Below, piece after piece: positions 6,722 through 31,165 of a DNA stretch of 64,000 nucleotides; position 1 is the first letter of the stretch, and every line of letters begins with the position of its first letter. A model generated the notes under the pieces. The model was not told the DNA's origin. It saw only the letters and a program-made list of their open reading frames with translations, and made no database searches. The position numbers and the translations under genes were made by a program. Source of the DNA: Planctomycetota bacterium (GTDB taxonomy: Bacteria > Planctomycetota > SZUA-567 > H5-PLA8); contig BTVV01000001.1 of the NCBI GenBank assembly GCA_045863855.1, positions 96,800 to 160,799 of the forward strand. Reading direction: 5' to 3'.

Positions 6722-8239
6722 TTACTTCCGGCGTCCGCGTTCGCGGGGCGGGGAGGGCGGGCCGCCTTCGTCCATGCCTTCGAACATGCTCCCCAGCATG
6801 TCGCGGTAGCGCCCCAGTCCTTCGGTCTCGTCCTTAGCCAGCAGCCGCGACTGGTGCAGCCCTTCAAGGACGAACTCCAGCGCCGCCGGCAGTTCGACGC
6901 GCTCGTCGCCGATGGGTACGTGCTCCCGCGCCAGCGCTTCGAGGCCGTCGACGGACTTCAGCTTGGCCAGCGCCTCGGCGGTGGGCGCGCGGTCGGTCAG
7001 TTCGACGGCGTTGCCCTTGGCGAACCAGTTGATGACGGCCTTGTACGGCCCGAAGCTGGCGTCGTCCTTGTTCTGGCCGTAGGCGTCGGGCAGGTAGCGG
7101 TCGAAGACGTTCTTGAGCCCGCGGCCGACCAGATGCCGCGCGACGTTGGCCGCGCCTTCCTGCTCGCCTTCGTAAACCAGTTCGACCTTGCCCGTCACGG
7201 CGCTGATCGCCGGCTGGAAGTCGACGGGGCGCGCGCAGACGGACGTCTCGCCGTTGAGCAGCGCGCGGCGTTCGGCGTTGGAGATCACGTTCTCGAGCAG
7301 CGTGATCGGCAGCCGCGCGCTTACCCCGCTGCTCTGGTCGAGGAACTCGCTCTTGCGCGCCGCGAACGCGACTTCCTCGACGACTTCCTTCAGGTACGGC
7401 GGGACGAAGACGCGCACGTCGCCGCCGCGGGCGACCCACGCTTCCTGCGCGGTGATGGCGAGCGATTCCTCGAGCTTCGACGGGTAGTGCGTCAGGATCT
7501 GGCTGTCGATGCGGTCCTTCAGCGGCGTGATGATGCTGCCGCGGTTCGTGTAGTCCTCGGGGTTGGCCGTGTAGATCATCAGCACGTCCATCGGCAGGCG
7601 CACGGGGAAGCCGCGGATCTGGATGTCGCGTTCCTGCATGATGTTCAACAGGCCGACCTGGATGCGGCTGGGCAGGTCGGGGAGTTCGTTGATGCAGAAG
7701 ATGCCGCGGTTGGTGCGCGGGATGATGCCGTAGTGGATCACGTCCTCGCTGGCGTAATCGAGGCGCTTGGTGGCGGCCTTGATCGGATCGATGTCGCCGA
7801 TCAGGTCGGCGATGGTGACGTCGGGCGTGGCGAGCTTCTCGCGGTAGCGTTCGGCGCGGGTGAGCCAGTGGATCTCGGCGGCGTCGCTGTAGGCGGCCAG
7901 ATGCGCGCGCGCGCCGGTGGTGACGGGCGCGAGCGGGTCTTCGTTGAGCGGGAAGCCGGCGAGGACGGGGATCTCGGGGTCGAGCAGATCGGTGAGCTGC
8001 CGCGCGAGGCGCGTCTTGGCCTGCCCGCGCAGGCCCAGCAGGATGAAATCGTGATGCGAGAGGATCGCGTTAATGACCTGCGGGATGACCGTTTTCTCGT
8101 AGCCGACGATGCCGGGAAAGAGCGGCTCGCCGGATTTGAGCTTGGCGACGAGGTTGCGGCGCAGTTCGTCCTTGATCGAACAAGGCTTGTACCCGCTGCG
8201 CTTCAGTTCGCCGACGGTGGTGGGCTTGGGGACTCCCAT
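6722..8239 (-). CDS. AAA+ ATPase, Mg-chelatase/MoxR-related
   Basis: Walker A GLRGQAKT, Walker B IFCINE, TANPEDYTNRG and PLKDRI; ATG at 8239 after AAAGGA. Confidence 0.9.
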   Translation of the reverse strand: MGVPKPTTVGELKRSGYKPCSIKDELRRNLVAKLKSGEPLFPGIVGYEKTVIPQVINAILSHHDFILLGLRGQAKTRLARQLTDLLDPEIPVLAGFPLNEDPLAPVTTGARAHLAAYSDAAEIHWLTRAERYREKLATPDVTIADLIGDIDPIKAATKRLDYASEDVIHYGIIPRTNRGIFCINELPDLPSRIQVGLLNIMQERDIQIRGFPVRLPMDVLMIYTANPEDYTNRGSIITPLKDRIDSQILTHYPSKLEESLAITAQEAWVARGGDVRVFVPPYLKEVVEEVAFAARKSEFLDQSSGVSARLPITLLENVISNAERRALLNGETSVCARPVDFQPAISAVTGKVELVYEGEQEGAANVARHLVGRGLKNVFDRYLPDAYGQNKDDASFGPYKAVINWFAKGNAVELTDRAPTAEALAKLKSVDGLEALAREHVPIGDERVELPAALEFVLEGLHQSRLLAKDETEGLGRYRDMLGSMFEGMDEGGPPSPPRERGRRK

Positions 8240-8610: not shown

Positions 8611-9846
8611 TTACTTTCCCGCGCCCGGCGTTTCGTATTCCGGTGCCTGCGTTTTTTCGGGCACGGGCGGAATATTCGGCGGCGCGGGCCGCTCTTCGAT
8701 CTTCGGCGGCGTGGGACGTTCGGGCGGCGGCGCGGGCACTTCGGGCGGACCGGGCAGCCGGGGCGACGGCTCGAGCGGCAGATCCGGCGCGCGCTCCTTC
8801 AGGCGTTCCGGATCGGGCACCAAGGCCAGGTGCACGTACTTCTCGAGCTTGAAGACATCCTTGCGCCCTTCGACCTGCGCGACCGCGTAGTCTTCGCCCA
8901 CCTGCCCGAAGCGCAGGCGGAAGACCGTCCCGTCGATGAGCGTGATCTTGGTGGTGGCCGCCGGCGGCTGGATGCCCAGCGCTTCGCGCGGCAGGTCGTC
9001 GGCGTAGCTCTTGGCGTTGAGCCACGCGGCGGTGGAGCAGATCGCGCGGACGGTGCCGTCGTTGGCGAGCGCCTCCTCGGGCTCGACGAGCTTCCACACC
9101 ATCTTCGGGCCTTCTTGCCGGGTCTCTTCGCCGCCCGCGCCGGTGCGCGGTTCGGGAGGTTTGGGGAACGAGTCGCCGGGGTTGAGCGGGCCTTTGCCTT
9201 CGACGAAGCGGCGCAGGCGGTAGGACTTGGCGCCCTGTTCGAGCACGATGTCGATCGCGTCGCCGGCTTTGAAGCGCAGCAGCGCGAGGTCGTACCAGTA
9301 TTCCTGCTTCAGCTCGCGGCGTTCGCCTTCCATCTTATGCCCGGCCAGCTCGTCGAAATTGGCGTCGACTTCCAGCACCTTGTCGTCGTCACCGCGCAGC
9401 ACGTAACAGCGTTCGAACTGCGGGGACTTGCCGACGACGAGCTTGGCGAGCGGTTCGGTGCCCGAGCCCATGACGACGACCTCGGTGCGGCGCTTGTCGT
9501 CGAGTTCGAAAAGTTCGTTTTCGCCCAAGCGCGGCTGCACGAAGGTGGCTTTCTTGATGCCCTCCAGCAGCTTCTCCACGCGCGTCCACTGCACGGCACG
9601 GTCGTCGTGGCTGGCGAGCACCCATTCCTTGTCGATCTTGCGGCGCAGCGCGACGGTGCGGCCCTGCTGCACCATCACAATCGCCTGCGCGTCGTCGATG
9701 CGGAAATCGGGGAAGAGCGGCTGGCCCGGATTCAGCTCCAGACCGCGGATGCCTTCCATGTTCGCGGTCGGATTGGGCATCAGGAGCCAGGCCGCGACAA
9801 GCACGGCCAGCGCGGCGCTCAGGACGATCGGCGTCTTCGGGTTCAT
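8611..9846 (-). CDS. DUF4340-like membrane-anchored protein (Gld-type ABC accessory)
   Basis: N-terminal TM; two related modules; Pro-rich tail; ATGA overlap with the GldG-like gene. Confidence 0.75.
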   Translation of the reverse strand: MNPKTPIVLSAALAVLVAAWLLMPNPTANMEGIRGLELNPGQPLFPDFRIDDAQAIVMVQQGRTVALRRKIDKEWVLASHDDRAVQWTRVEKLLEGIKKATFVQPRLGENELFELDDKRRTEVVVMGSGTEPLAKLVVGKSPQFERCYVLRGDDDKVLEVDANFDELAGHKMEGERRELKQEYWYDLALLRFKAGDAIDIVLEQGAKSYRLRRFVEGKGPLNPGDSFPKPPEPRTGAGGEETRQEGPKMVWKLVEPEEALANDGTVRAICSTAAWLNAKSYADDLPREALGIQPPAATTKITLIDGTVFRLRFGQVGEDYAVAQVEGRKDVFKLEKYVHLALVPDPERLKERAPDLPLEPSPRLPGPPEVPAPPPERPTPPKIEERPAPPNIPPVPEKTQAPEYETPGAGK

Positions 9847-12416: not shown

Positions 12417-13463
12417 TCAGCCTTGCGCCTTGGTTTGCGCGGGTTCGGCGGCGGAAGCGTCTTGCGCGTCGTCGTCGCGGGGCGCATGCCCGGTCGCCGC
12501 CAGAAACGCGTCTTCGAGGCTCATCCCTTCGCCGTGCAGATCCAGCAGCGGCCAGCCGTGCTCGCGCGCGGCGGCGAAAAAGGCCTCGCCCGCGGCGTTG
12601 ACTTCGCGCGCTTCGGGCCGCTGACCGCCGGCGCCGACGTGGAGCACGCATTCGACGAGGCCCTGGTCGGGCACCGCACGAACGGCGCTCTTGCGCCAGG
12701 CGCTGTTTCCTTCGAGCGCCTTCCGGACGTTCGACGCGTCCACGCCGCGCAGCCGCGCCACCAGCCGCCCGGGGCGCGCCGTCTGCGCCTTCAAGTCGGT
12801 GGGCGAACCGTCGGCGACGAGCCGCCCCTTGTTAATCACGATCGCGCGGGAACAGACCGCTTCCACTTCCTGCATGATGTGCGTGCTGAAGAAGACCGTC
12901 TTCGTCTGGCCGATGACCGCGATCAAGCGGCGGATCTCGACGATCTGGATCGGATCGAGCCCGCTCGTCGGTTCGTCGAGGATCAGCAAGTCGGGATCGT
13001 GCACTACGGCCTGTGCGATGCCGACGCGCTGGCGGTAGCCGCGGCTGAGCGTGCCGATCGGCGCCATGTACTTGGGCTTCAGCCCGCAGTGCTCGACGGC
13101 CCACTCGATCCGTTCCATGCGCCGTGCGCGCGCGTTCAGGCCGCGCATGCGGGCGACGAAATCGAGGAACTCGCGCACGCGCATCTCGGTGTACAGCGGC
13201 GCGTTTTCGGGCAGGTAGCCCAGCCGCCGGCGCACGCCCACGGGGTCGCGTTCGATCGAACAGCCCGCGACGGTGGCGGTGCCTTCGTCCGGCGTGAGGT
13301 AGCAGGTCAGGACCTTCATCAGCGTCGATTTGCCCGCGCCGTTGGCGCCCAGCAGCCCGACGATTTCGCCGCGGCGCACCTGGAAGGTCAACCCGTCCAC
13401 GGCGCGCAAGGGGCCGTAGGTTTTGGCCAAGCCTTGGACATCGACGAGCACTTCTGCGGCCAT
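12417..13463 (-). CDS. GldA-like ABC transporter ATP-binding protein
   Basis: GANGAGKST, LSRGYRQR, ILDEPTSGLDP, STH. Confidence 0.93.
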   Translation of the reverse strand: MAAEVLVDVQGLAKTYGPLRAVDGLTFQVRRGEIVGLLGANGAGKSTLMKVLTCYLTPDEGTATVAGCSIERDPVGVRRRLGYLPENAPLYTEMRVREFLDFVARMRGLNARARRMERIEWAVEHCGLKPKYMAPIGTLSRGYRQRVGIAQAVVHDPDLLILDEPTSGLDPIQIVEIRRLIAVIGQTKTVFFSTHIMQEVEAVCSRAIVINKGRLVADGSPTDLKAQTARPGRLVARLRGVDASNVRKALEGNSAWRKSAVRAVPDQGLVECVLHVGAGGQRPEAREVNAAGEAFFAAAREHGWPLLDLHGEGMSLEDAFLAATGHAPRDDDAQDASAAEPAQTKAQG

Positions 13464-19397: not shown

Positions 19398-20684
19398 TTG
19401 CGCATTCCGCGAGTCATCACGGTCATGAATCAGAAGGGCGGCGTCGGCAAGACCACGACGACGCTCAACGTCGGCGCTTCGCTGGCCCACTTGGGCAAGC
19501 GCGTTCTCTTGATCGACCTCGACCCGCAGGCCAACCTGACCCACGGCCTCTCCATGCTCGCGAAGGACCTCTCCGAATCCGTCTACGAGCTGCTGCTCAA
19601 TCCCCACGTCGTCGCCTCGAACCTGATCCAAAGCACGCCTTGGCCGGGGCTGGACATCGTGCCCAGCCACATCGACCTCTCGGGCGCGGAGATCGAACTG
19701 GTCCCGGTGATGGGCCGCGAGACGCGCCTGGCGCGCGCGCTGGCGCCGGTCCGCGACCGGTACGATTACGTCTTCATCGACTGCCTGCCCAGCCTCTCGC
19801 TGCTGACCGTCAACGCCATGGTCGCCGCGAACGAAGCGCTCGTACCGCTGCAAGCGCACCCCTTCGCGCTCGAAGGCTTGGGCAAACTTTTCGAAGTCGT
19901 CGGCATGCTCCGCGAAGCGCTCAACCCCGATCTGCGCGTCAGCGCCGTCCTCGTCACGCTCTTCGACAGCCGCACCAACGTGAACCGCGAGACGCTCAAG
20001 CGCCTGCAGGGCGATCCGCGCCTCGCGCCGCATCTGCTCGGCACGCTGGTCCGGAACAACATCAAGATCGCCGAGAGCCAGAAAGACGGCGTGCCGGTCC
20101 TCCACTACGACGCGGCGTGCGCCGGCGCGAAAGCCTATCTGCGCGTGGCCGAAGAACTCCTCGAGATGGAACGCAGCGGCTGTCTGGCCAGCGAGGCCGC
20201 CAAGCTGCTCGAAAAGCGCGAACGCGCCGAAGGCAAGCCCGCGCAGGGGGAAACGGCCGACGACGACGCGCCGGTGCGCGCCCGCGCCAAGCGCGCTCCG
20301 GCGGGCAAACCCGAGGCGCCAGCGGAAGAACCGGCCCCCGCGCCGGCCGAAGCGTCCGTCGCCGCGCAGGCCGGCCGCGCCATTCACGAAGCGCTGCACG
20401 CCGCCCCGCCGACCGCGCCCGAACCCGTCCCGGCGCCGCACGCCGAGGCCGAAGCTTCGAACCGCTTTCCGCACGCACCGGAAAGCGCCGCGCAACCCGA
20501 ATCGAGCGCGCTGTCCGGAGCCGATGGAGAAGCAGGGAAAGTTGTAGCGGAAAAAGAACCGAACGAGCCCGTCGCCGGGCCGCTCCGCGCGCCCGCCGAA
20601 CGCCTCGGCACGCGCAGTGACGCGTCGCTCCGGCCGCGCCTGCATGCGGTCCCCTACCACGGTACGCGCCCCGTCCGGAAGTAA
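19398..20684 (+). CDS. parA: ParA/Soj family ATPase with long Pro/Ala/Glu-rich C-terminal tail
   Basis: [28 protein letters not shown] start after AAGGAG. Confidence 0.9.
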
Positions 20685-20818
20685 ACCGGCCGCTCGGCAA
20701 GGGCCTTTCAATTTTTCAATCAACCCGTGTGCCGTCGGCACACCAGAGTTCGGATTCGTCATCGCCAAGAGCTGAAAGGCTCTTGCCGCTCAGCTTCGCC
20801 TGCGGGCGAAAGGCGCGC

Positions 20819-22009
20819 TTACTCGCCGCCGATCTTGTACAGGTGCGCGTCCCAGGGCTTGAACTCGTCCTTCAGGACGCCGTCCGCCACGTCCACCGTG
20901 CGGTCCTCGCCCAATACCTTCGCCTTAGCCGCGCCGCTCAGACCGGCGATCTTGAACGAGGCCGTCGTGGTTCCGTCGCGCATGCCCACCGCGAAGAGGT
21001 ACGTCGCGCCGCCGTGTCGCTTGACCATGCACTCGACGGGAACTTTCGCGTTCGAGGTCTCGACGCTCGCGCCGTCTTTCACGCTCGGGCTGTTCAGCAC
21101 CGGCGCCAGTTCGTGGATCTGTTTGTTGATCTTTGTGATCGCCGCGAGCATCTCCGCGTCGGCCAGCATCCCCGCCTCGACGAACTTCGGTTTGAACTGG
21201 TGGCTGAAGTAAATGAGCCCCTTCGCGCCGCGCACCAGCGCCATCCAGACTTCGCAGCGCACCTGATGCGGCGTCGCCTTCGCATCCGGGTTGCTGATAT
21301 GCGTGCATTCGATGCATGTCCAGACCGGCTTTTCGTCCTTCGACCACTCGCGCAAGCGCTTCACGCCGTCGGCGACGAACCAGAGTTTGCCCGCGACTTC
21401 CTTGTTTCCGTGGCAGGCCGGGTAAATATCGAAGCTGACCAAATCGCAGCCCTTCACGTACTCCGGATAGTCTTCGGGCTTGTTGGTGCGCACGCCGCGC
21501 CCGAACCAGTTGTCCCACGCCACGCCCTGGCCGAGGTTCAAGATCACCGGGCGGCTCGGGTCGCGCTCCTTGATCGCCTTGTAGTCTTCCACGATCTTTT
21601 CGGGCGCGATCGGCGGACCGTAGCCTTTGCCCGTGCCCAGCGACTGCGCGTTGTCCGGCTCGTCGCCGTGCATCCAGCCGACGATCGTCGGATCGTCCAG
21701 CCGCGTACGCGCCAGCTCGTTCTGATCGCAGATTACTTTCATCCCGTGCTTCTTGAGTTCGTCGAGCTGCTCGGCGGTCGGGCCTTTCCAGAGCCCCACG
21801 TACACGTTGATCCCCGCTTCTTTGTACTTAGGCGCGGCGGCCGGAGCTTGCAGCCAGACGCAGACCGGAAAGAAGGAGGGATCCGATGGCGGACCGTTCT
21901 TCCACGCGGCGTACGGATTACCGCCCTGTCCTTCTTCCGCGGACACGCCCAGACTTAAAGCCAGGCCCGTAAGCGCCAGCGCGAACAAGCCTGCGTTCAA
22001 CATCTGCAT
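20819..22009 (-). CDS. Secreted glycoside-hydrolase-like protein (clan GH-A-like)
   Basis: Signal peptide; WMHGDEPDN, SFDIYP, WTCIE, GAKGLIYF; SD AAGGAG. Confidence 0.7.
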   Translation of the reverse strand: MQMLNAGLFALALTGLALSLGVSAEEGQGGNPYAAWKNGPPSDPSFFPVCVWLQAPAAAPKYKEAGINVYVGLWKGPTAEQLDELKKHGMKVICDQNELARTRLDDPTIVGWMHGDEPDNAQSLGTGKGYGPPIAPEKIVEDYKAIKERDPSRPVILNLGQGVAWDNWFGRGVRTNKPEDYPEYVKGCDLVSFDIYPACHGNKEVAGKLWFVADGVKRLREWSKDEKPVWTCIECTHISNPDAKATPHQVRCEVWMALVRGAKGLIYFSHQFKPKFVEAGMLADAEMLAAITKINKQIHELAPVLNSPSVKDGASVETSNAKVPVECMVKRHGGATYLFAVGMRDGTTTASFKIAGLSGAAKAKVLGEDRTVDVADGVLKDEFKPWDAHLYKIGGE

Positions 22010-22474
22010 GGTGAAGCTCCTTAAATGAACGTTCGCACATCCTGCGTGAGTATTAGCAAAAACTCGGTTCGGTCCACGAGTTCGTACACCGCGACGCGGT
22101 GGTCATAGACTGCTAATATTCGGGCAAGCTGCGCGGTTTCAAGCGCCGCGGCCTTCCTTGCAGGCTTGACCGATAAGCCGCAGGCCTCTTCAAACACGTC
22201 TTCTGCGGAACATTTTTGCGCGCTCGTGCATTCCCCTAAACCACAAAGCGTATGTTGGTTCCCAGGTGCAGGACACTCTTGTGCGCAAGTGCAGCACGGT
22301 GAAAACGGTGCAACAAGGAAGCAGCATCTCGCAATCAACCGTAATCCACGGTAGATTAAAGGGTGTGACGCTCTGCCAAGGCTTTACAGCCGCGTGTGCG
22401 AGACGGGTTCACGGGGTGCACTCGCGGTTGAAGTAAGCTTTCGGAGCCCAGACGGACCTGAAAGGCCCGCCTGA

Positions 22475-23623
22475 ATGTCGACTACTTCGATGTCTCCCGC
22501 TCCGGCCTCTAAGATTCGCGGCCGGCGCAGGCAATTAGGTCCCTACGAGCTTCTTAAAAAGCTCGGCCAGGGCGCCATGGGCGCCGTGTACTTGGCGCGG
22601 CACGAGCAGACCGGGCAGAAGGTCGCGCTCAAAGTGCTGCCCCCCGACATGGCCGAAGACCACGAATTTCTCGAACGCTTTCGACGCGAAATGCGCGCGA
22701 TGGTCCGCTTGCGCCATCCCAACGTCGTCGCCGCTTACGACGTCGGCGAGGTCGACGGCTTTCATTACATTGCCATGGAGTTCGTCGACGGCGAAGACCT
22801 CGAAGACGGCTTCCGCCACTTCCCCAACAAGCGCTATCCGGCGACCGAGATCATCAAGATCGCGCGCAGCATCGCCCATGCACTGGCCGCGGCCAGCGAA
22901 CTCGGCATCGTCCACCGCGACATCAAGCCCGCGAACATCCTTAAGGACGAGAACGGACACTACAAGCTCACCGACTTGGGCCTCGCCGCCCGCGTTCTCG
23001 ACGACGAACGCGTGACGCAGACGGGTCTCGCCGTGGGCACGCCGTACTACATCTCGCCCGAACAGGCGCAGGGCTACGAGAACGTCGACGTCCGAGCCGA
23101 CATTTACAGCCTCGGGGCGACGCTGTACCACCTCGCCACCGGGCAGCTTCCGTTCCCCGACGAGAACGCGGTGGTCGTGATGACCCGGCACGTGCAGGAA
23201 GAACTGCGCCCGCCCAGCGAGCTGATCCCCGATCTGCCCAAGCCGATCTGCCGGCTGATCGTCAAGATGATGGCCAAGCGTCCCGCCGACCGGCACAAGG
23301 ACGCCAAGGAACTACTCGCCGATATCGAAGGCATCGCCAAGGGCGAAGTTCCGCACCTCAAGCGTGCGCGCGCCACCAAAGCCGGGACGTCGCTGAATCC
23401 CAGCATGCCGCCCGCGCCGGTCCCGCCGCCACCGGCAGTACCCGCGGCGCCGCGTGCGCCCGAATCGCGCACCGCCGGCGAATTGGGCGCCGCCAGCGGA
23501 GCCACGCCCAGCGGCCGCAAACGCAAACCCCAGCTCGCCCCTTGGAAATGGTACGCCTTCTGGGCCGGCCTCACCGTTTCCGCCATCCTGGTCGGTTTCG
23601 CCGTACGCGCGTTGATGCACTGA
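22475..23623 (+). CDS. Ser/Thr protein kinase with C-terminal TM
   Basis: LGQGAMG, VALK, HRDIKPAN, DLG, GTPYYISPEQ. Confidence 0.93.
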   Translation: MSTTSMSPAPASKIRGRRRQLGPYELLKKLGQGAMGAVYLARHEQTGQKVALKVLPPDMAEDHEFLERFRREMRAMVRLRHPNVVAAYDVGEVDGFHYIAMEFVDGEDLEDGFRHFPNKRYPATEIIKIARSIAHALAAASELGIVHRDIKPANILKDENGHYKLTDLGLAARVLDDERVTQTGLAVGTPYYISPEQAQGYENVDVRADIYSLGATLYHLATGQLPFPDENAVVVMTRHVQEELRPPSELIPDLPKPICRLIVKMMAKRPADRHKDAKELLADIEGIAKGEVPHLKRARATKAGTSLNPSMPPAPVPPPPAVPAAPRAPESRTAGELGAASGATPSGRKRKPQLAPWKWYAFWAGLTVSAILVGFAVRALMH

Positions 23624-23692
23624 CCGCCTTCCGCCGCTGAATCCCCCCGTCTCGGACTTGCCTCGCCGCGGGGATCGCGCGATTATGGACTT

Positions 23693-24286
23693 ATGGCCGA
23701 CGATGAAAAGCAGGGCCGTCCGATCCTGGCCACGATGGTGGGCTGCGCAGGGTTGCTGTTCATCCCGGTGCTGCTGCTGGGCGTGATCGGGTATTCCGGC
23801 TGGAGGCTCTGGGGTCCCCCAAGTGATTCCGGCGCTCCGAAGCCCCCCGCGTCCGGAACGGCCGGCAACGCAGGCCGCTTCAGCGCCGAAGAGGAAATCT
23901 ACGTCCGCGCCCTGATCGAGCGGTTGGGCATCGAAGACCCCGCGGCCAATCGCAAAGCCTGGAGCGACTTGCAGCCGTTTCACCGCCGCGACCGCGACCG
24001 CGTGCGGCAGTTGATGCTCGAAGCCCTCGCGCGCGCCACGAATCCGCTTTTGCTGCGTTCGCTCGTGTGGGGCCTGTGCCGCTACTACGACGAAGCCGGA
24101 CGCGCTGGCATGCTCCAGATCGCCGGGCAGCGCCGTAACCAGCCTCAAGTCATCGATGCCATGCGCTCGGGCATCGTCTCGCTGGCGGATTCGGACGCGG
24201 CGCTGGGCAACCAGATGCTCCAGCGCTTCGACCAGGCCGTCGGCCGCACCGGCGCGCAGCCGGCCGATCCCCGCGACGAGTACTGA
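23693..24286 (+). CDS. Hypothetical membrane-anchored helical protein
   Basis: N-terminal TM followed by HEAT-like helices; co-oriented with neighbours. Confidence 0.7.
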   Translation: MADDEKQGRPILATMVGCAGLLFIPVLLLGVIGYSGWRLWGPPSDSGAPKPPASGTAGNAGRFSAEEEIYVRALIERLGIEDPAANRKAWSDLQPFHRRDRDRVRQLMLEALARATNPLLLRSLVWGLCRYYDEAGRAGMLQIAGQRRNQPQVIDAMRSGIVSLADSDAALGNQMLQRFDQAVGRTGAQPADPRDEY

Positions 24287-24298
24287 TCGGGAACCCGC

Positions 24299-25108
24299 AT
24301 GCCCGGCCCCAACGACGCCAATCAGCGCTACCACGACCGCGTGGCTCCGCGTTACGACGAGATCTACCGCGGCCCGCGTTGGGACGCTTGGTACGAACTG
24401 TCCTGGGACGGCCTGAAACCCCACATCCCCTCCGACCTCCGCGCCCCCGTCGCCGATCTGGGCTGCGGCACCGGAAAGTACGGCCTGCGTCTGGCCAAAA
24501 GCGGCTACCACGTCACCTTCTCCGATCTCAGCCGCGAGATGCTCGAAGTCACGCTCCGCAAGGCTGCCGAGATCGGCGTCGAGACCGCCTGCGAGTTCAT
24601 TCAGGCCGACGTGGTCGATCTGCGCGAACTGCGCGAGAACCACTTTGCGCTCGCCATCGCCCAAGGCGACGTGCTCTCGTTCGCCACCTCGCCGCCCAAG
24701 GCGCTGCGCGAGATCCACCGCCTGCTCCGTCCCGGCGGCATCCTCGTCGCGTCCGTCGATCAGACCTACGCGGCGCTCGCACATTACGCCGAGAAGCTCG
24801 ACCTCGACGGCTTGCAGACGCTGATCCAGCGCGGCGATATGGAATGGCTGGCCCGCGAGAAGCACGAACGCTTTCCCGTGCACACCTTCAGCGCCGAAGA
24901 CCTCCAGCAGCTCCTCGCCAAATGCCGCTTCGAACTGCTGGACCTCTTCGGCAAGACCGTGCTGCCCTTCAAGGCGATGGACGAAGCCTTTGCCGACGAA
25001 GCCCGCGCGCGGCGCATTTTGGCGCTCGAGAAGAAGCTCTGCCGCAAGCCCTCGGCGCTGGGGCTCGCCAGCCACCTTCAGTTTGCCGCCCGCGCGCTGG
25101 AAAAATGA
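24299..25108 (+). CDS. Class I SAM-dependent methyltransferase
   Basis: VADLGCGTG, SDLSREML, LLRPGG. Confidence 0.9.
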   Translation: MPGPNDANQRYHDRVAPRYDEIYRGPRWDAWYELSWDGLKPHIPSDLRAPVADLGCGTGKYGLRLAKSGYHVTFSDLSREMLEVTLRKAAEIGVETACEFIQADVVDLRELRENHFALAIAQGDVLSFATSPPKALREIHRLLRPGGILVASVDQTYAALAHYAEKLDLDGLQTLIQRGDMEWLAREKHERFPVHTFSAEDLQQLLAKCRFELLDLFGKTVLPFKAMDEAFADEARARRILALEKKLCRKPSALGLASHLQFAARALEK

Positions 25109-25214
25109 GTGCCGATTTATGTCAGCGTGGTGAGCGTTGCTTGGAAGAGTTCACCAGAATACTACAAACATAAACCGAATAAAGCGGTCTAAACTGAAAG
25201 TATACCGACTATTT

Positions 25215-25340
25215 TTGTCACCAAGGGAATCACGGTGACAATAATTGACTATGTTGTTCCATCGAACAATCGCTAAACTACACCATGTGCAAGACTTACG
25301 TTAATGAGCGCGATTGGGATCGAGTGGCATGCAGGTTGTT
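25215..25340 (+). promoter_or_regulatory. Putative sigma-54-type promoter with upstream palindromes
   Basis: TTGTCACC-N11-GGTGACAA (25215-25241); TGTTC-N4-GAACA (25255-25268); TGGCAT-GCAGG-TTGTT (25325-25340, with GT instead of GC at -12). Confidence 0.45.
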
Positions 25341-25350
25341 ATTGACGAAC

Positions 25351-25640
25351 TGCGTAAGCGGACGGTTGAGCGTCCTGATCTTTGACAATAGATTCAGTCG
25401 GCCTTTCAGAAGTGCGCCCCCCACTGATTCTGCAGTTTACGGATCGGCTCTCAAACGGCGGGTCCGTCCTCGAAGTCTCTTCCGCAGTGTGGTAGTTCCC
25501 TCGGGTCTGCTGGCAACAGGCCCCGCTGGCTGAATCGATTGTCCGGTACCCGGCGAAGCCCGAGATTGTACCGGTTACGGTGCAATCCCGGGCTTCAGTC
25601 GTTTCAAGGCGGTCCTTCTTCGGAAGGACCGCCTTTTTTT
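25351..25640 (+). ncRNA. Putative structured non-coding RNA, family unrecognised
   Basis: boxB-like hairpin and boxA-like TGATCTTTGACAA; 19-bp helix 25384-25402/25525-25543; inner hairpins; hairpin 25555-25596; terminator. Confidence 0.6.
25606..25640 (+). terminator. Intrinsic terminator
   Basis: AAGGCGGTCCTTC-TTCG-GAAGGACCGCCTT followed by a T tract. Confidence 0.9.
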
Positions 25641-25642
25641 GT

Positions 25643-26842
25643 TTACCGTCCGCGCGGGCGTCGGCCTTTGCGGCCGACGCGCCCCAGACGGCTGTTCGAT
25701 CCCGCCGGCTTCATGCGGCCCGAGAGCGGGCGGCGCCGGGCCGGAGCGCTGCCGCCGGGCTTTGTCGTTCCGCCCGCCGCCGCGCCTTGCGCCTTCAGCG
25801 TGACGATCAGCCGGATCGACTCCAGCACCGCCTGCGCGTCGGGAAAGCGCTGGCTTGGATCTTTCGCCAGCAGCCGCACCACCAGCGCCGCCGTCTGCGG
25901 CGTCAGGTCGGGGCGCAGATGCAAAATTTCCGGCACGTCCTCGAAGAGGTGCATGCGCAGCGTCTGTTCGGGCGTCGCGGCCAGAAACGGCGGCCGGCCG
26001 GTGAGGAACTCGTAGAGCATGCAGCCCAGGCTGTACAGATCGCTGCGCGGATCGGGGCGTCCTTCGCCGGCGACGACTTCCGGCGCGGTGTAATCCGGCG
26101 TGCCCCAGAACTCCTGCCGCTCGCCCGGCGCGGCATCCGGGTCGAGCTGCTGCGGCACGGCGATGCCCAGGTCGGTCAGCTTCGCCGCGCCTTCGGGCGA
26201 GAGCAGCACGTTGTCGGGGTTCACGTCGCGGTGTACCAGACCCGCGCGATGCGCGGCGTCCAGCGCCGCGGCCACCTGCGCCGTCAGATGCAGCGCCGCG
26301 GCCTCGTCGAGCATCCCGCCGCTGCGCTCCAGATGCGCGCGCGCCGAACCGCCCGCCACCAGCTCCATGATCACGTAGTACAGCCCTTCCGTGCACGCCA
26401 CACGCAGCACCTGCACCAGATTGGGGTGCCGCAGCCGCACCGCCGCGCGCGACGACTCCAGGAAGCGCTCCAGGATCTCCGGCTGCGCCGCCAGATCGGG
26501 CGAGAGGATCTTCAGCGCGAAGAGCCGCCCGCTGGGCTGGTGCCGAGCTCGGAAGACCGATCCGGTCGAGCCTTCGCCCAGCGTGTCGAGGAGTTCGTAG
26601 CCGTCGAGGACCGAGATCGTGCGCAGCGGTTCGTTGGGGCCTTCGTGGAGGCTGCGTTCCAGCCCCGCCAGCGCCATCTGGCTCAGCAGGCCGCGTTCGA
26701 CCAGGAAGGCGCCGAAGCCGAACGCCGCTCCGCGCTTCTTCAGTTCGCCGTAAACCACCAGCGCCGCGGTGCCCTTGTCGGGGTCCAGCAGCCCGGAGCG
26801 CACGCCGGCCCGCAACAGGAGCGCCTCTTCTTCCAGGGCCAA
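25643..26842 (-). CDS. Ser/Thr protein kinase with N-terminal helical domain
   Basis: LGEGSTG, FALK, HRDVNPDN, DLG, GTPDYTAPE; N-terminal FGAFLVERGLL segment. Confidence 0.9.
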   Translation of the reverse strand: MALEEEALLLRAGVRSGLLDPDKGTAALVVYGELKKRGAAFGFGAFLVERGLLSQMALAGLERSLHEGPNEPLRTISVLDGYELLDTLGEGSTGSVFRARHQPSGRLFALKILSPDLAAQPEILERFLESSRAAVRLRHPNLVQVLRVACTEGLYYVIMELVAGGSARAHLERSGGMLDEAAALHLTAQVAAALDAAHRAGLVHRDVNPDNVLLSPEGAAKLTDLGIAVPQQLDPDAAPGERQEFWGTPDYTAPEVVAGEGRPDPRSDLYSLGCMLYEFLTGRPPFLAATPEQTLRMHLFEDVPEILHLRPDLTPQTAALVVRLLAKDPSQRFPDAQAVLESIRLIVTLKAQGAAAGGTTKPGGSAPARRRPLSGRMKPAGSNSRLGRVGRKGRRPRGR

Positions 26843-26922
26843 ATCCGCGCTCTCCGTACCGCCCCGCGAACTCGAACGGGTTGCCCGTCACCGCACGCAA
26901 GCACGCCCGCCGGACGGGAAAC

Positions 26923-28185
26923 TCACTCGTCCCAGCTCGGAACCTTGACCCCGCTGCGCAGCACCGTGCCCGGCGGGAGCAGCCGCATGGTGATGGTGCT
27001 CGTCAGCGAAACTTTTTTCTCTTCCTGCTTGGGCGGCTGGTTGTTCTCCTGCGGCACGACCGAGGACGCTTCCATGCGGATCGTGAACGTTTCGGTCTTC
27101 TCCAGTATCCGGCCGCTGGCCACCTGCACCGTCGCGGTGCCCGAACCTTCCAGCGCGTGCAGCAGCCGGTTGCGTTCGCGGAACGACTCGCTAAAGCGGC
27201 CCAGGTATTCCGAAGCGTTCGAATCGAACGCGCCGGCGAAGCGGTATTCCACCACCGCCACCCGGTTGTCGCCTTGCCCGCGGACTTCCCGCAGCCGGCC
27301 TTCCAGGCGCGCATCGAACTGCGTGGGGAGCAGGTTGGCCGCGTCGGGCTGTTCCAGCGGCACGATCACCGGGACGCGGAAAGCCCACGAATCGCCGGGC
27401 GCCACCGCGCGCGCCGAGAAGATCGGAAACAGGTAGTGCGGCGTGTCGTCGTGCAGGATGTGCGGCGTCGGAATCTTCTGCACCGCCTTGACCCGCAGCC
27501 GCGGGAAGATCTGCGTACCCTGCGTCGTCTCGAGCGTCACCGAGTCTTCGTCTTCTTTCGTCTTGATCCCGATGTGGATCCGGCCGTCCTCCAGCAGCAC
27601 CAGGTCTTCGCTGCGGTAGGCGATGCGGTTCTGATCGTCGAAGGCGTAGCAGCGCTGCTGGGCCACGAAATCGCTGTTGGGGCCCAGATTCAGAAGCGTA
27701 TCCGTATTGAGCAGGATCGAATCGACGACCTTCTTGTTCTCGTGGATCTCTTTGCGGCTGCGGTCCAGGTAGGTGCGGCGGATCGCGATCCGCGTCATGT
27801 TCTCGGGCGTGCGGTCCATCGCGGCGTAGGTGAGGTAAAAATCGCCCGTCTCGGTGAAGCGGTTCTCGCCGGCCTGGCTGCGCTCGACGCGGACTTCGTA
27901 GATGTGCACTTTGCCCACGGGCACCCGCGCGCGCAGCGTCACCGCGTCGCCCGATCCCGTCCGCCCTTCCCACGCGGGCATCCGCGGCGCTTCGCCTTTA
28001 GGCTCGGCGGGTTTTTCCGTCTCTCGCTTCTCGGCCTGCTCGCCCGGTTTCTGCTCCGGATCCTCGCGCAGCGCCGCGCCGGCGTCGTTCGATCCGCCCC
28101 GGCAGCCGGACAAGAACGGAGCCGCGCCACACGCCAGCAGCGCGCAAAGCATCCCCACCGTGCACAGGCCCATCCCACGATTCAT
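26923..28185 (-). CDS. Hypothetical lipoprotein
   Basis: SD GGGGAG; lipobox FLSGC; beta-rich body. Confidence 0.75.
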   Translation of the reverse strand: MNRGMGLCTVGMLCALLACGAAPFLSGCRGGSNDAGAALREDPEQKPGEQAEKRETEKPAEPKGEAPRMPAWEGRTGSGDAVTLRARVPVGKVHIYEVRVERSQAGENRFTETGDFYLTYAAMDRTPENMTRIAIRRTYLDRSRKEIHENKKVVDSILLNTDTLLNLGPNSDFVAQQRCYAFDDQNRIAYRSEDLVLLEDGRIHIGIKTKEDEDSVTLETTQGTQIFPRLRVKAVQKIPTPHILHDDTPHYLFPIFSARAVAPGDSWAFRVPVIVPLEQPDAANLLPTQFDARLEGRLREVRGQGDNRVAVVEYRFAGAFDSNASEYLGRFSESFRERNRLLHALEGSGTATVQVASGRILEKTETFTIRMEASSVVPQENNQPPKQEEKKVSLTSTITMRLLPPGTVLRSGVKVPSWDE

Positions 28186-28298
28186 GGCGCGACTCCCCTG
28201 GCTCGGAAAAGCCCAATGATTATAGGTGACGCCAGGGACCGTGGCAGCTTCCAAAACTTCTGGCTTCCTGGGGGCGTTCGGCGGGTGGAACGCTCCGG

Positions 28299-29810
28299 CT
28301 ACTTCCGCGCGTCCAGCCGCCGCAGCGAATCCCGCGCATCGGCCGTCTCGGGGGCCTCCACAGCCCCGGCCGCCTGCCGCTCCAGGATCGCGCGCGCCGC
28401 CGGCGAACCGATCCGCTCCAGCGCCTGCTGCGCCCGGATCGCGCGCAGCGACTCGTTCGAGATCGGAACCTCGGCGGCCGCGGCGGCCAGCAGTTCGTTG
28501 AGGCGCGTCTTCAGCTCCAGCGCCGGCTCCGCGGCCAAGGCGGCCTTGAATTCCCCAACGGCCGCCGCACCCCGTTCGCGCAAGTAGCTCATCGCGTTCG
28601 CGCGTACATCGAAGTCGTCGTGATCCAGCTCGGCGATCATCCGGCGGATCTTCACGGCATCGAGTTCGGGCTTCGCGGCGGGCCGCAGGCGCTCCGCCAG
28701 CAGCGCCGCGCCCGCTTCGCCCGCCCGCGTGAACGCAAGCACCGCGCGGTAGGCTTCGGGGGCGTCGTCCCCGGCCAGCGCCTGCCACGCCGCATCCAGC
28801 GCCGCCGCATCCGGCGCTTTCGCGGCCGCCGGCGCCTGCGTCTGCGCCAGATCCCACAAGGCCACGTCGTTATCGCGGCCCGCGCTGAGCAGGTAACGGC
28901 CGTCTTTGGAAAAGTCCACCGCGAGCACCAGATCCTGATGGTGCTTCAAGTAGCCCAGCGACGCACCGGTCCAGGCGTCCCACAATCCTACCGACTGATC
29001 CCAACTTCCGGTCGCGATGCGCCGACCGTCGGGCGAGACGGCGGCCCAACGCACGTGGTTGGTGTGCCCTTCGAGCGTCCCGCAGATTCGCCCGCTGGCG
29101 CGCTCGACCAGCAAGCCCACGTTTTCGCGCAACCCCAGGACCACCGTCCGCCCGTCCGGCGCGAACGCGCAGCCCCAGACCGTGCGGTTCTCGCCCAGCG
29201 CGATCGTCTTCACGCACGCAAAGTTCTGCAAACTCCAGAGCAGGAGCTGGCCGTCGCCCTGTCCTTTGGTCAACAGCACCGACGAGTCCGAGGCGAAGCA
29301 GACCGGTTCGCACGAGCCGTCCAGTTTGTGAGCGGAAATCGTGCCGTCGAGCGGCGTGAGCAGGACTTCATGCTCCGAACCCGTCGCCAGCCAGCGCCCG
29401 TCCGGAGCACAGGCCAGTTGGAAGACCGTGGCGGTGTGGTCCTTGATCTGCGCCTTCTGCGCCCCGCTGGCGGCATCCCAGAGAATTGCCGTCTTATCGT
29501 AGCTTCCGCTGATGAGCGTTTTGCCGTCGGGCGCAAGCGCCGCGGTGGCCACCTCGCCCGTATGTCCGGCGAAGCGCCGCACTTCCCGGCCGTCGGCCAC
29601 CGACCACAAGTACGCCAGTTTTTCGTTGTCCCCGCTGACGATGAACTGCCCGTCTTGCGAGAAGGCCGCGTCGAGCACCGGGCCCTGATGCTTAAAAATC
29701 CGCAGCGGTTTGATCGGCGGCGCTTCCGGCGGCGCTTCGGCATCCGCGCCCGCCGCCGTCCAAGCCAGCAGCGCCAGCATCCCCAACCATCCCTTAAGGT
29801 TGATCCGCAT
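28299..29810 (-). CDS. Secreted WD40-repeat protein with C-terminal HEAT-like domain
   Basis: Signal peptide; about 7 GH...WD repeats (e.g. SGSYDKTAILWD); C-terminal IAELDHDDFDVR. Confidence 0.9.
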   Translation of the reverse strand: MRINLKGWLGMLALLAWTAAGADAEAPPEAPPIKPLRIFKHQGPVLDAAFSQDGQFIVSGDNEKLAYLWSVADGREVRRFAGHTGEVATAALAPDGKTLISGSYDKTAILWDAASGAQKAQIKDHTATVFQLACAPDGRWLATGSEHEVLLTPLDGTISAHKLDGSCEPVCFASDSSVLLTKGQGDGQLLLWSLQNFACVKTIALGENRTVWGCAFAPDGRTVVLGLRENVGLLVERASGRICGTLEGHTNHVRWAAVSPDGRRIATGSWDQSVGLWDAWTGASLGYLKHHQDLVLAVDFSKDGRYLLSAGRDNDVALWDLAQTQAPAAAKAPDAAALDAAWQALAGDDAPEAYRAVLAFTRAGEAGAALLAERLRPAAKPELDAVKIRRMIAELDHDDFDVRANAMSYLRERGAAAVGEFKAALAAEPALELKTRLNELLAAAAAEVPISNESLRAIRAQQALERIGSPAARAILERQAAGAVEAPETADARDSLRRLDARK

Positions 29811-29917
29811 AAGTCGTCCTTTCAGGTCCGTAACGTTAGACGCTCCCGGCTTCCGCGGCAGGTACAGGAATCCAGACCCCTAAGCGGGCATGCCTGAGCC
29901 GTTGGTCTTTGTCGGAC

Positions 29918-30322
29918 CCGTCTCCCATACCCAGCGCTCGGTGGAAGGCGTGGACGGCGGACTGTTCGAGACCGTCGCACAAGCGCCCGTTCAAGGCGGC
30001 CTGGACGCCGCGTTGCGCATGCGGCCGGAAAGAGCGGCGCGCATGTAGAGAAGATCCAACAGCAAGAGCGCGAACGGATCGAACCGTTGCTGTCGGTGGT
30101 GGCGGTGCGCTTGCTGAGTGCGAAGGCGAAGAGCGCGGCCCGACGAGAAGAGCCGCTGCGGCCCGAAGACGCCGATCCTGGCGATCGCAAGCTTGGGCGG
30201 ATGGATTCCGCACGACAAGAAACCCGGCTGGCAAGTCCTCTGGCGCGGCTGGTCTTGCCGCCTGCCGCTCATGCAAGGCTACGAACTCGCGCTCGCACTT
30301 AAAAAGTGTGTGCCATGACGAG
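29918..30322 (+). pseudogene. Internally deleted IS4-family (IS50/Tn5-like) transposase remnant
   Basis: Fragments in different frames: LFETVAQAP, KSGAHVEKIQ...LLSVVAVRLL, IASLGGW...PGWQVLWRGW...GYELA; ends AAGTGTGTGCCATGACGAG. Confidence 0.75.
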
Positions 30323-30490
30323 TCCTATAAGGAGGGTGCTAGCAACGTCTGGAAGCCCGCTGCGGCGGGCTGAGGTTAATGGCATGAAGCCGAAAGCCCC
30401 CATGTGTGCTTCAACCTTTCCTTTCCCGCTTTCAGCCCCCGCCGGTTTCGCCGAACGGGTAGAATATAAAGACGGCTTGGCGGAGGCGGC

Positions 30491-31165
30491 ATGGCTCAGA
30501 CGTTGGTGGTCGGCGACATCCATGGGTGTGCGGACGAGTTCGAGGCGCTGCTCGAGCGGGCGGCGCTGGCGTCCGGGGACCGCGTGATCGCCGTTGGCGA
30601 TCTCTTTGCCCGCGGCCCGCGCCCCGAACGGGTCCTGGAACTGTTCCAGCGGCCGACCTACGAATTCACCATGGGGAATCACGACCGCCCCATCCTGGAC
30701 GCGCTCCGCGAAGGCGGCCGGACGAAGGATCTGAGTTCCGCGCAGGCTCAAGCGTTGGAACGCATGCGCGGCCAATCGGATCGACTTCTCGATTTGCTCG
30801 AAGGCGCACCGTATGCGATCCACGGCGCGACGGCCGTCGGCACGCGCTCGTGGGTGGTCGTGCACGCGGGGATTCATCCCAAACGCGGGGTGGCCGGCAC
30901 CAAGCCCAGAGAGTTCCTGCAGATTCGGCAGGTGGAAGACATGCCAGGGGAGCCCTTCTGGTGGGACGTGTACGCCGGTCCGGAGCTGGTGCTCTTTGGG
31001 CACACGCCGCGTGAAGACGTGATCCAGGCATTCAAGCAGGGCCGCCGTGTCGCGCTGGGGCTGGACACCGGCTGCGTCTACGGCGGCGATCTGACCGGAT
31101 ATCTGCCCGACGCCGACCGCTTCGTGACGGTCAAAGCGCGCAAGGCGTACTTCCGCAAAGGCTGA
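30491..31165 (+). CDS. Metallophosphoesterase (PPP/ApaH/PrpE-like)
   Basis: GDIHG, GDLFARG, GNHD, HAG, FGHTP, LDTGCVYGG. Confidence 0.93.
   Translation: MAQTLVVGDIHGCADEFEALLERAALASGDRVIAVGDLFARGPRPERVLELFQRPTYEFTMGNHDRPILDALREGGRTKDLSSAQAQALERMRGQSDRLLDLLEGAPYAIHGATAVGTRSWVVVHAGIHPKRGVAGTKPREFLQIRQVEDMPGEPFWWDVYAGPELVLFGHTPREDVIQAFKQGRRVALGLDTGCVYGGDLTGYLPDADRFVTVKARKAYFRKG

Follow-up and report, generated by a model that had tools for sequence, protein, structure and literature searches.

The question raised by this locus is what a boxA of the rRNA-leader type serves in an intergenic region where no rRNA follows. In the literature examined, boxA is described from pre-rRNA, a few mRNA leaders, and CRISPR arrays (PMC5725501, PMC13753749). 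In the window (the whole 64,000-nt stretch of DNA that was analysed, from the Planctomycetota genome G000), the original prediction had placed a stand-alone, possibly Nus-bound and RNase III-processed small RNA at positions 25351–25640. The core of that reading stood: the element is a stand-alone structured ncRNA, it is conserved and represented in RNA-seq data, and its boxA equals the rrn core. The RNase III product gained no support, the 5′ hairpin is probably more than a boxB, and the UUCG terminator was confined to two of six copies. The element, here called the boxA RNA, is almost certainly a real structured RNA. It represents an expressed family of structured sRNAs that had not been catalogued before and whose parts are unusual in combination.

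Structure of the locus

The intergenic gap, previously put at about 530 bp, measured 534 bp (25109–25642). It is flanked upstream by a gene for a SAM-dependent methyltransferase (24299–25108, + strand; PF13649, E = 1.4e-20) and downstream by a convergent gene for a Ser/Thr protein kinase (25643–26842, − strand; PF00069, E = 2.2e-48), both of which lie outside the RNA. Every predicted helix was found on the + strand where it had been placed. The hairpin at 25360–25375 leads straight into TGATCTTTGACAA (25376–25388). The closing helix P1 (25384–25402 with 25525–25543) is paired at 18 of 19 positions, with one A.G mismatch and two G-U pairs, and its inner 11–12 bp form the conserved part. The hairpins at 25439–25467 and 25503–25523 have 10 of 11 and 7 of 7 pairs. 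At the 3′ side, 18 of 19 pairs form in the hairpin at 25555–25596 and 13 of 13 in the hairpin at 25606–25635, which carries a UUCG loop and a U tract. Freedom from rRNA, tRNA, or CRISPR cargo was borne out as well: there was no Rfam match, a tRNA search of the window returned none, and a terminator follows within 250 nt.

An 82-aa ORF (25285–25533) overlaps both the RNA and its putative sigma-54 promoter. It showed no coding conservation, since the frame is intact only in the near-identical copy of genome G002 and is shifted or stopped in four of the five other copies, and it had no Pfam match. The folding energy of the whole 290 nt gave z = −5.56, but the opposite strand also reached −4.80. 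When both 3′ hairpins were omitted, z for the remaining core was −1.37 in the window copy and ranged from −0.85 to −3.49 across six copies. Folding energy by itself is not decisive. Because fold energy and a motif alone are weak evidence, the case is carried by conservation and covariation.

Conservation and covariation of the helices

Homologues were collected from five Planctomycetota genomes (including G000, G001, G002, and G012) and one metagenome contig, giving a total of six copies from about four independent lineages. Core identity to the G000 copy was 98, 80, 64, 62, and 63% in the five other copies, and flank identity in the four distant ones was 42–58%. Compensatory changes back both the closing helix and the central hairpin.

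In motif-anchored tables, 54 of 55 cells of P1 were paired, with both-side changes at 5 of 11 pairs; the G012 copy lacks the 3′ strand of P1 at a contig end. As the registers had been picked by best pairing, controls were run with G002 dropped as a near-copy. In register, 43 of 44 P1 cells were paired, compared with 4–20 of 44 when the strands were slid. A null model taking the best of 18 registers gave a probability of 0.008 for 10 or more of 11 pairs. Strands of P1 swapped between genomes still paired at 6–11 of 11 positions; because G-U pairs keep swapped strands pairing, the covariation of P1 is softened. The central hairpin (25439–25467) combines a variable stem with an invariant CUCAA loop (25450–25456). 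Here 56 of 60 cells were paired, both-side changes occurred at 8 of 10 pairs, and the sliding control with G002 dropped gave 47 of 50 in register versus 16–26 of 50. When a strand from genus g1 was combined with one from another copy, only 2–5 of 10 positions paired. In a plain MAFFT alignment the named structure was 95.8% paired; of 500 shuffles, 1 attained this value, a figure that should not be taken as a probability.

The hairpin at 25503–25523 (GGGUCUG-CUGGCAA-CAGGCCC) is nearly invariant and is a candidate protein-recognition site. All 42 cells were paired, with two one-side changes, and the 13 central bases were the same in all six copies. In an alternative register it forms a GCAA tetraloop with a CUG bulge. 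The motif of this GCAA hairpin occurs at seven other sites in the genome, none of them evidently a hairpin by eye.

Invariant bases are found in boxA, in the two loops of a putative kissing contact, and in the GCAA hairpin. The two linkers (25403–25438 and 25468–25502) are the least conserved part of the RNA. They contain 64–66% C+U and are pyrimidine-rich in all copies, a composition that would suit a base-pairing sRNA in which both linkers pair with ribosome-binding sites of mRNAs, independently of Hfq. A precedent exists in Pxr, a sigma-54-transcribed and processed sRNA (PMC5568312). However, seeds are usually among the most conserved segments of an sRNA (PMC5568312), and no Hfq was found in any of 17 family genomes, so that we regard mRNA pairing as unlikely. 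With invariant bases in loops and one hairpin, and linkers that drift, recognition of shape or by a protein fits better than a seed.

The 5′ hairpin and a putative loop-loop contact

The 5′ hairpin (25360–25375) occupies the boxB position, and all 30 cells were paired, with one change from A-U to G-U. The original prediction of a boxB held insofar as a hairpin precedes boxA, but the hairpin is unlike the sequence preceding boxA in the rrn operons of the relatives. Its 6-nt loop GUUGAG (25365–25370) is complementary to the central loop, which consists of CUCAA plus C, U, or AC. Loop-loop pairing was found in 33 of 36 cells, or in 35 of 36 if a single bulged A is permitted. Of the six pairs, five do not vary; the remaining one occurs as G-C, G-U, or A-U, with one both-side change. 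The rough chance of such complementarity was 0.005 at the loop position and 0.1 anywhere in the RNA. From these pairing tables, the two loops probably form a kissing contact. Since its loop pairs with the central loop, the 5′ hairpin probably contributes to the structure of the RNA rather than serving solely as a boxB. Together, the predicted folds and the covarying helices suggest a multibranched shape. An HDV-like ribozyme cleaving at 25365 was also considered and was rejected because the bases flanking the central loop pair together, as judged by eye.

boxA and its relation to the rRNA operons

The boxA (25376–25388, + strand), a putative NusB-S10 loading site, overlaps with its 3′ end the outer part of P1. 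Its core TCTTTGACAA is invariant in all six copies. Comparison with the organisms' own rrn leaders, as had been proposed, showed an identical core: TCTTTGACAA is the boxA core of the 16S leader and the 23S spacer in G001 and G002 and of the 16S leader in G000. The two bases preceding the core differ (GA or GT versus GC). With up to one mismatch, the 10-mer core occurs once in the window versus 1.26 expected. The window boxA is close to the Bacillus subtilis consensus, which was shown to bind NusB (PMC13753749). Genes for NusB and for RNase III were present in all five genomes searched, and Rho in all 17. As a separate observation, G012 (contig C39, 138961–141653) has two tandem full-length rho-like genes. 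We consider boxA likely to be functional.

Fold predictions pair the 3′ end of boxA with the tail of the RNA, and the GUC partner is invariant in alignment A5. Because of this pairing, the site would suit use during transcription only. Why an RNA of only about 250 nt that carries a terminator should require antitermination is not obvious. An invariant, rrn-identical boxA on a short RNA that lacks any cargo might point to a NusB-S10 decoy, an induced RNA that titrates Nus factors and thereby tunes rRNA synthesis. However, the predicted pairing would cover the 3′ part of boxA in the complete RNA, each RNA offers one site, and the rest of the conserved fold would be left unexplained; this alternative is very doubtful.

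Two further observations concern boxA and the rRNA operons of these organisms. In G000, a repeated intergenic family, 77–91% alike and present in at least seven places, has no Rfam match, and four or more of its copies contain an rrn-type boxA of their own (contigs C129, ~470–770; C118, ~8680–9050 and ~12820–12980; C257, ~1410–1565; C133, ~85–255; C186, ~7495–7625; C261; and C5). In two of its copies, boxA is followed by apparent fragments of group II introns and of IS66, as read by eye. The 16S–23S spacer contains tRNA-Ile, tRNA-Ala, and a third tRNA, with a CAT anticodon and called as Met, in three of three genomes (L141, L142, L143).

Predicted promoter and activator site

A sigma-54-type −24/−12 promoter, TGGCA-N6-TTGT, is located at 25325–25339 on the + strand, with a predicted start of transcription near 25351–25352. 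We take this sequence to fit the sigma-54 consensus, although its −12 element is TTGT rather than the TTGC of the consensus; TTGT is also found at eight other sites in the genome. The promoter motif lies 19–20 nt 5′ of the first hairpin in all six copies and has 13 matches in the 6.9-Mb genome. Genes for one RpoN-box protein and for 14 GAFTGA proteins are present in this genome. Further upstream, the inverted repeat TTGTCAC-N13-GTGACAA (25215–25241, + strand) probably serves as the activating site to which a sigma-54 enhancer-binding protein binds. A TGACAA half-site is found 88–90 nt upstream of the sigma-54-type site in six of six copies, and the full palindrome only in G000 and G002. In a promoter scan, bases of the activator site could also be read as a weak sigma-70 site (9/12), a reading that depends on a half-site restricted to G000 and G002.

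Of 401 genomes of the phylum, 10 have a sigma-54 motif with boxA behind it, and in five of these it is the boxA RNA; the reversed control gave none. Six other sites with this combination (in five genomes of the phylum) were unrelated to the boxA RNA, and four activator-plus-sigma-54 sites in G006, G010, and G014 precede protein genes. The arrangement makes it likely that a sigma-54 promoter drives the boxA RNA. This conserved promoter and the activator site were absent from the first account of the locus.

The same TGACAA half-site and a sigma-54-like site, 88 nt apart, also occur in G000 (contig C63, 7837–7938, − strand) and in G002 (contig C2, 450431–450532, + strand), where the pair precedes a cluster read from its translations as pilT-pilB-like. 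The activator is possibly common to the boxA RNA and this cluster. A PilR-like identity of the activator-site protein would be a guess, for which a search gave no support. On contig C100 of G000 (~2660–2860), a GTCAC/GTGACAA palindrome and a sigma-54-type site stand before the gene of a secreted repeat protein. The pilT-pilB-like cluster and this gene, two loci in all, offer a lead on a possible regulon. Elsewhere, a sigma-54-type motif lies ~110 nt before the boxA of the G010 rrn leader (L143), upstream of the rRNA operon, and a sigma-54-type motif plus boxA (L089; G178, contig C637, 7607–7661) directly precedes a short ORF that is cas2-like by eye.

Transcripts, ends, and processing

The element is represented in RNA-seq contigs from three studies, which match only ~25365–25554, with 99%+ identity. 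Twenty RNA runs from 10 studies contained 10–15% of the words of a 1.2-kb query, and four of these runs were examined by contig. Three runs from different studies each yielded one near-exact contig, covering 25370–25554, 25365–25552, and 25365–25545, respectively. In the fourth run, from a related strain, contig X1 begins at 25373 and reaches the kinase gene, and further flanking segments were covered too. These contigs indicate presence only, without strand, start, end, or level, and flanking genes that are uncovered need not be silent. One contig has 13 foreign letters before 25365, which we take to be adapter. The 5′ ends of the contigs (25365–25373) are 13–22 nt downstream of the predicted start, and the contigs of the three studies end at 25545–25554, just 5′ of the long 3′ hairpin; because contigs show presence only, these ends are a weak hint.

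No sign was found of the 120–160-nt product that RNase III had been proposed to excise: the contigs hold boxA and both strands of P1, although contigs cannot exclude such a species. The predicted cUUCGg terminator with its U tract (25606–25640, + strand) is present in the window, but it is a second intrinsic terminator that occurs in only two of the six copies, those of the sister genomes G000 and G002. The conserved 3′ element is the long hairpin at 25555–25596, which, with a short U-rich tail, spans 25555–25604 on the + strand. It has a constant A.C mismatch and is found in all six copies (in G012, on a second contig), and it is probably the terminator or the 3′ domain of the family.

Phylogenetic range

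By BLAST, the boxA RNA was found in 5 of 61 relatives, G000 included, and a covariance model identified the same five among 62 genomes. The metagenome copy, which was outside the training set and lies behind another upstream gene, scored 106.8 bits. When 20 genomes of the order were searched less stringently, further matches appeared only at E = 0.13 or worse; of these seven weak model matches (E = 0.13–0.94), six were inspected and lacked the features of the RNA. Phage and plasmid records gave no match, and a metagenome scan with the 5′ hairpin plus boxA returned nothing. Motif matches in viral sequences (two), in a genome collection (two of six), and in metagenomes (one of two) comprised the 19–22-nt hairpin only and were rejected. 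The range is therefore narrow and covers one uncultured subclade of a Planctomycetota family, in which 5 of 17 genomes have the RNA. In a kinase tree the five carriers fall within one well-supported group of seven, and in the remaining two members, the fragmented assemblies G004 and G009, the RNA was not found.

The methyltransferase gene adjoins the RNA in five of six copies, and the kinase gene in all six (in L110, the contig holds the 3′ end of the kinase gene only). This constant neighbour, together with the course of contig X1, would be expected if the element acted in cis on the convergent kinase gene, as antisense RNA or terminator platform. A related possibility is the remnant of an rRNA operon that has lost its rRNA, as boxA and a helix closing the ends resemble the wrapper of pre-rRNA (PMC10250234). 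However, the RNA is absent beside the kinase gene in 10 other family genomes that keep it, and similarity to an rrn leader, spacer, or rRNA beyond boxA was limited to matches of 10–21 nt at E = 0.095 or worse. Beside the methyltransferase gene, it was likewise not found in 12 other genomes, one of which ends at a contig edge. The interior is under structural selection of its own, which would not be expected of a relic, and we consider both forms of this explanation highly improbable.

Comparison with known RNA families

In accordance with the original prediction, no known RNA was recognized by Rfam: at a cutoff of E = 5, positions 20000–31000 of the window gave four matches, none of which came near the threshold, and Rfam 15 gave no match at E up to 0.5 at nine loci, including four homolog loci. 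We found no earlier description in Rfam or the literature; subscription papers and supplementary RNA catalogues, which lay outside the search, could hold one. The earlier failure to match 5S, 6S, SRP RNA, tmRNA, or RNase P RNA by eye was upheld family by family, with no match at the element. SRP RNA (RF00169), tmRNA (RF00023), and RNase P RNA (RF00010) were above threshold elsewhere in G000, and a 16S gene is also located elsewhere. Neither 5S nor 23S was found in G000, and RF00001 gave no match there. Ordinary 5S was present in three of five genomes searched, including the two closest carriers G001 and G002, where it is canonical. A divergent 5S or an rRNA-operon relic was rejected on the basis of these ordinary 5S genes in carriers and the lack of rrn similarity beyond boxA.

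Further candidates were tried and rejected. Bacterial Y RNA is accompanied in its genome by a Ro60/Rsr gene, which is usually its neighbour; here, TROVE matches were partial, covered only 49 residues, and were found in two of five carriers and on other contigs. A CsrB/Rsm-type sponge would have many GGA motifs and a co-occurring CsrA; it was discarded with two GGA in 25352–25545 and CsrA in two of five carriers. For a guide RNA to 16S or 23S rRNA, the complement of the invariant hairpin in the 16S of the lineage is only 7 nt long, and the best duplexes lie at different places in G001 and G002. An anticodon mimic of tRNA-Ala was excluded by the loop of the genome's tRNA-Ala(GGC), which differs from CUGGCAA.

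The element matched neither the 6S model (RF00013) nor a profile of 15 6S RNAs of the same class, and this profile found no match anywhere in G000 (best E = 0.8). Rfam 6S was detected in 0 of 17 genomes of the family (f1) versus 33 of 62 of the class, and two sister families mostly have it. Nor was 6S found in other planctomycetes, as reported in one study (PMC5673643). An RNA polymerase-binding RNA might therefore be sought in place of the missing 6S, and the boxA RNA resembles 6S RNA in size, in its closed ends, and in apparent abundance, being found in many metatranscriptomes. In contrast, 6S RNA is a rod with a central bubble, whereas the predicted fold here is branched and asymmetric, and the 6S genes of the class have another promoter type. 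Moreover, only 5 of the 17 family genomes carry the boxA RNA, though all 17 are without 6S. Replacement of 6S is thus quite unlikely.

Proposed mechanism

We tentatively describe the boxA RNA as a signal-induced, Nus-assisted, compactly folded RNA of ~190–250 nt, with a function that we infer. An enhancer-binding protein at the GTGACAA site would activate sigma-54 RNA polymerase, with a start near 25351. NusB-S10 would load on boxA and shield the untranslated, CU-rich transcript from Rho, and might also help the distant ends of the RNA to meet, as on pre-rRNA. P1 would then close and bury part of boxA, and the two invariant loops would kiss. The long 3′ hairpin would end transcription, so that a stable RNA of ~190–250 nt builds up. 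This RNA may act in trans, binding a protein through the invariant GCAA hairpin and the compact fold.

By analogy, a role as protein decoy or scaffold is the function we put forward, short of calling it probable. The drifting linkers, the lack of Hfq, and the occurrence of CsrA in only two of five carriers favour a decoy or scaffold over mRNA pairing, replacement of 6S, a Nus decoy, and a cis element or relic. A more novel reading is a small RNA that resembles a miniature pre-rRNA (loaded at boxA, chaperoned by Nus factors, closed at its ends, and folded by a loop-loop contact), with sigma-54-dependent induction and the transcription machinery itself as its target; it would either titrate NusB-S10 and so tune ribosome synthesis or bind RNA polymerase in a lineage that lacks 6S RNA. 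We see little likelihood of this. The family stands at six copies from one uncultured subclade. Nevertheless, a short self-terminated boxA RNA could serve to test Nus factors as general RNA-folding chaperones, apart from long-distance antitermination, and it is a candidate regulatory RNA in a lineage without detectable 6S or Hfq.

Relation to known boxA and sigma-54 systems

The boxA RNA shares with the signals of rrn leaders and spacers a small 5′ hairpin, a boxA, and a helix that joins distant ends. It differs in several respects: P1 has 11–19 bp, compared with the 25–40 bp reported for enterobacterial pre-16S (PMC10250234), no rRNA or tRNA lies inside, the promoter is of the sigma-54 type, and the hairpin loop pairs internally. 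With the non-rRNA boxA sites of the suhB leader, other mRNA leaders, and CRISPR arrays it has in common a boxA outside the ribosomal operons (PMC5725501, PMC13753749). However, those sites control a downstream gene or a long array, whereas here boxA is within a short self-terminated RNA. Non-coding RNAs were, as its authors state, outside the scope of a genome-wide search for boxA sites beyond rRNA (PMC5725501).

In genetic organization the boxA RNA resembles sigma-54-dependent sRNAs, which are likewise intergenic, with a −24/−12 promoter, an upstream activator site, a narrow lineage, and possible long and short forms. GlmY/GlmZ, CrcZ, and Qrr are transcribed by sigma-54 RNA polymerase. The boxA RNA had no Rfam match to any of these or to Pxr, and we know of no boxA or loop-loop contact in Pxr, GlmY/GlmZ, CrcZ, or Qrr. 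In its proposed protein-binding role, the boxA RNA would resemble other sigma-54-driven decoy sRNAs.
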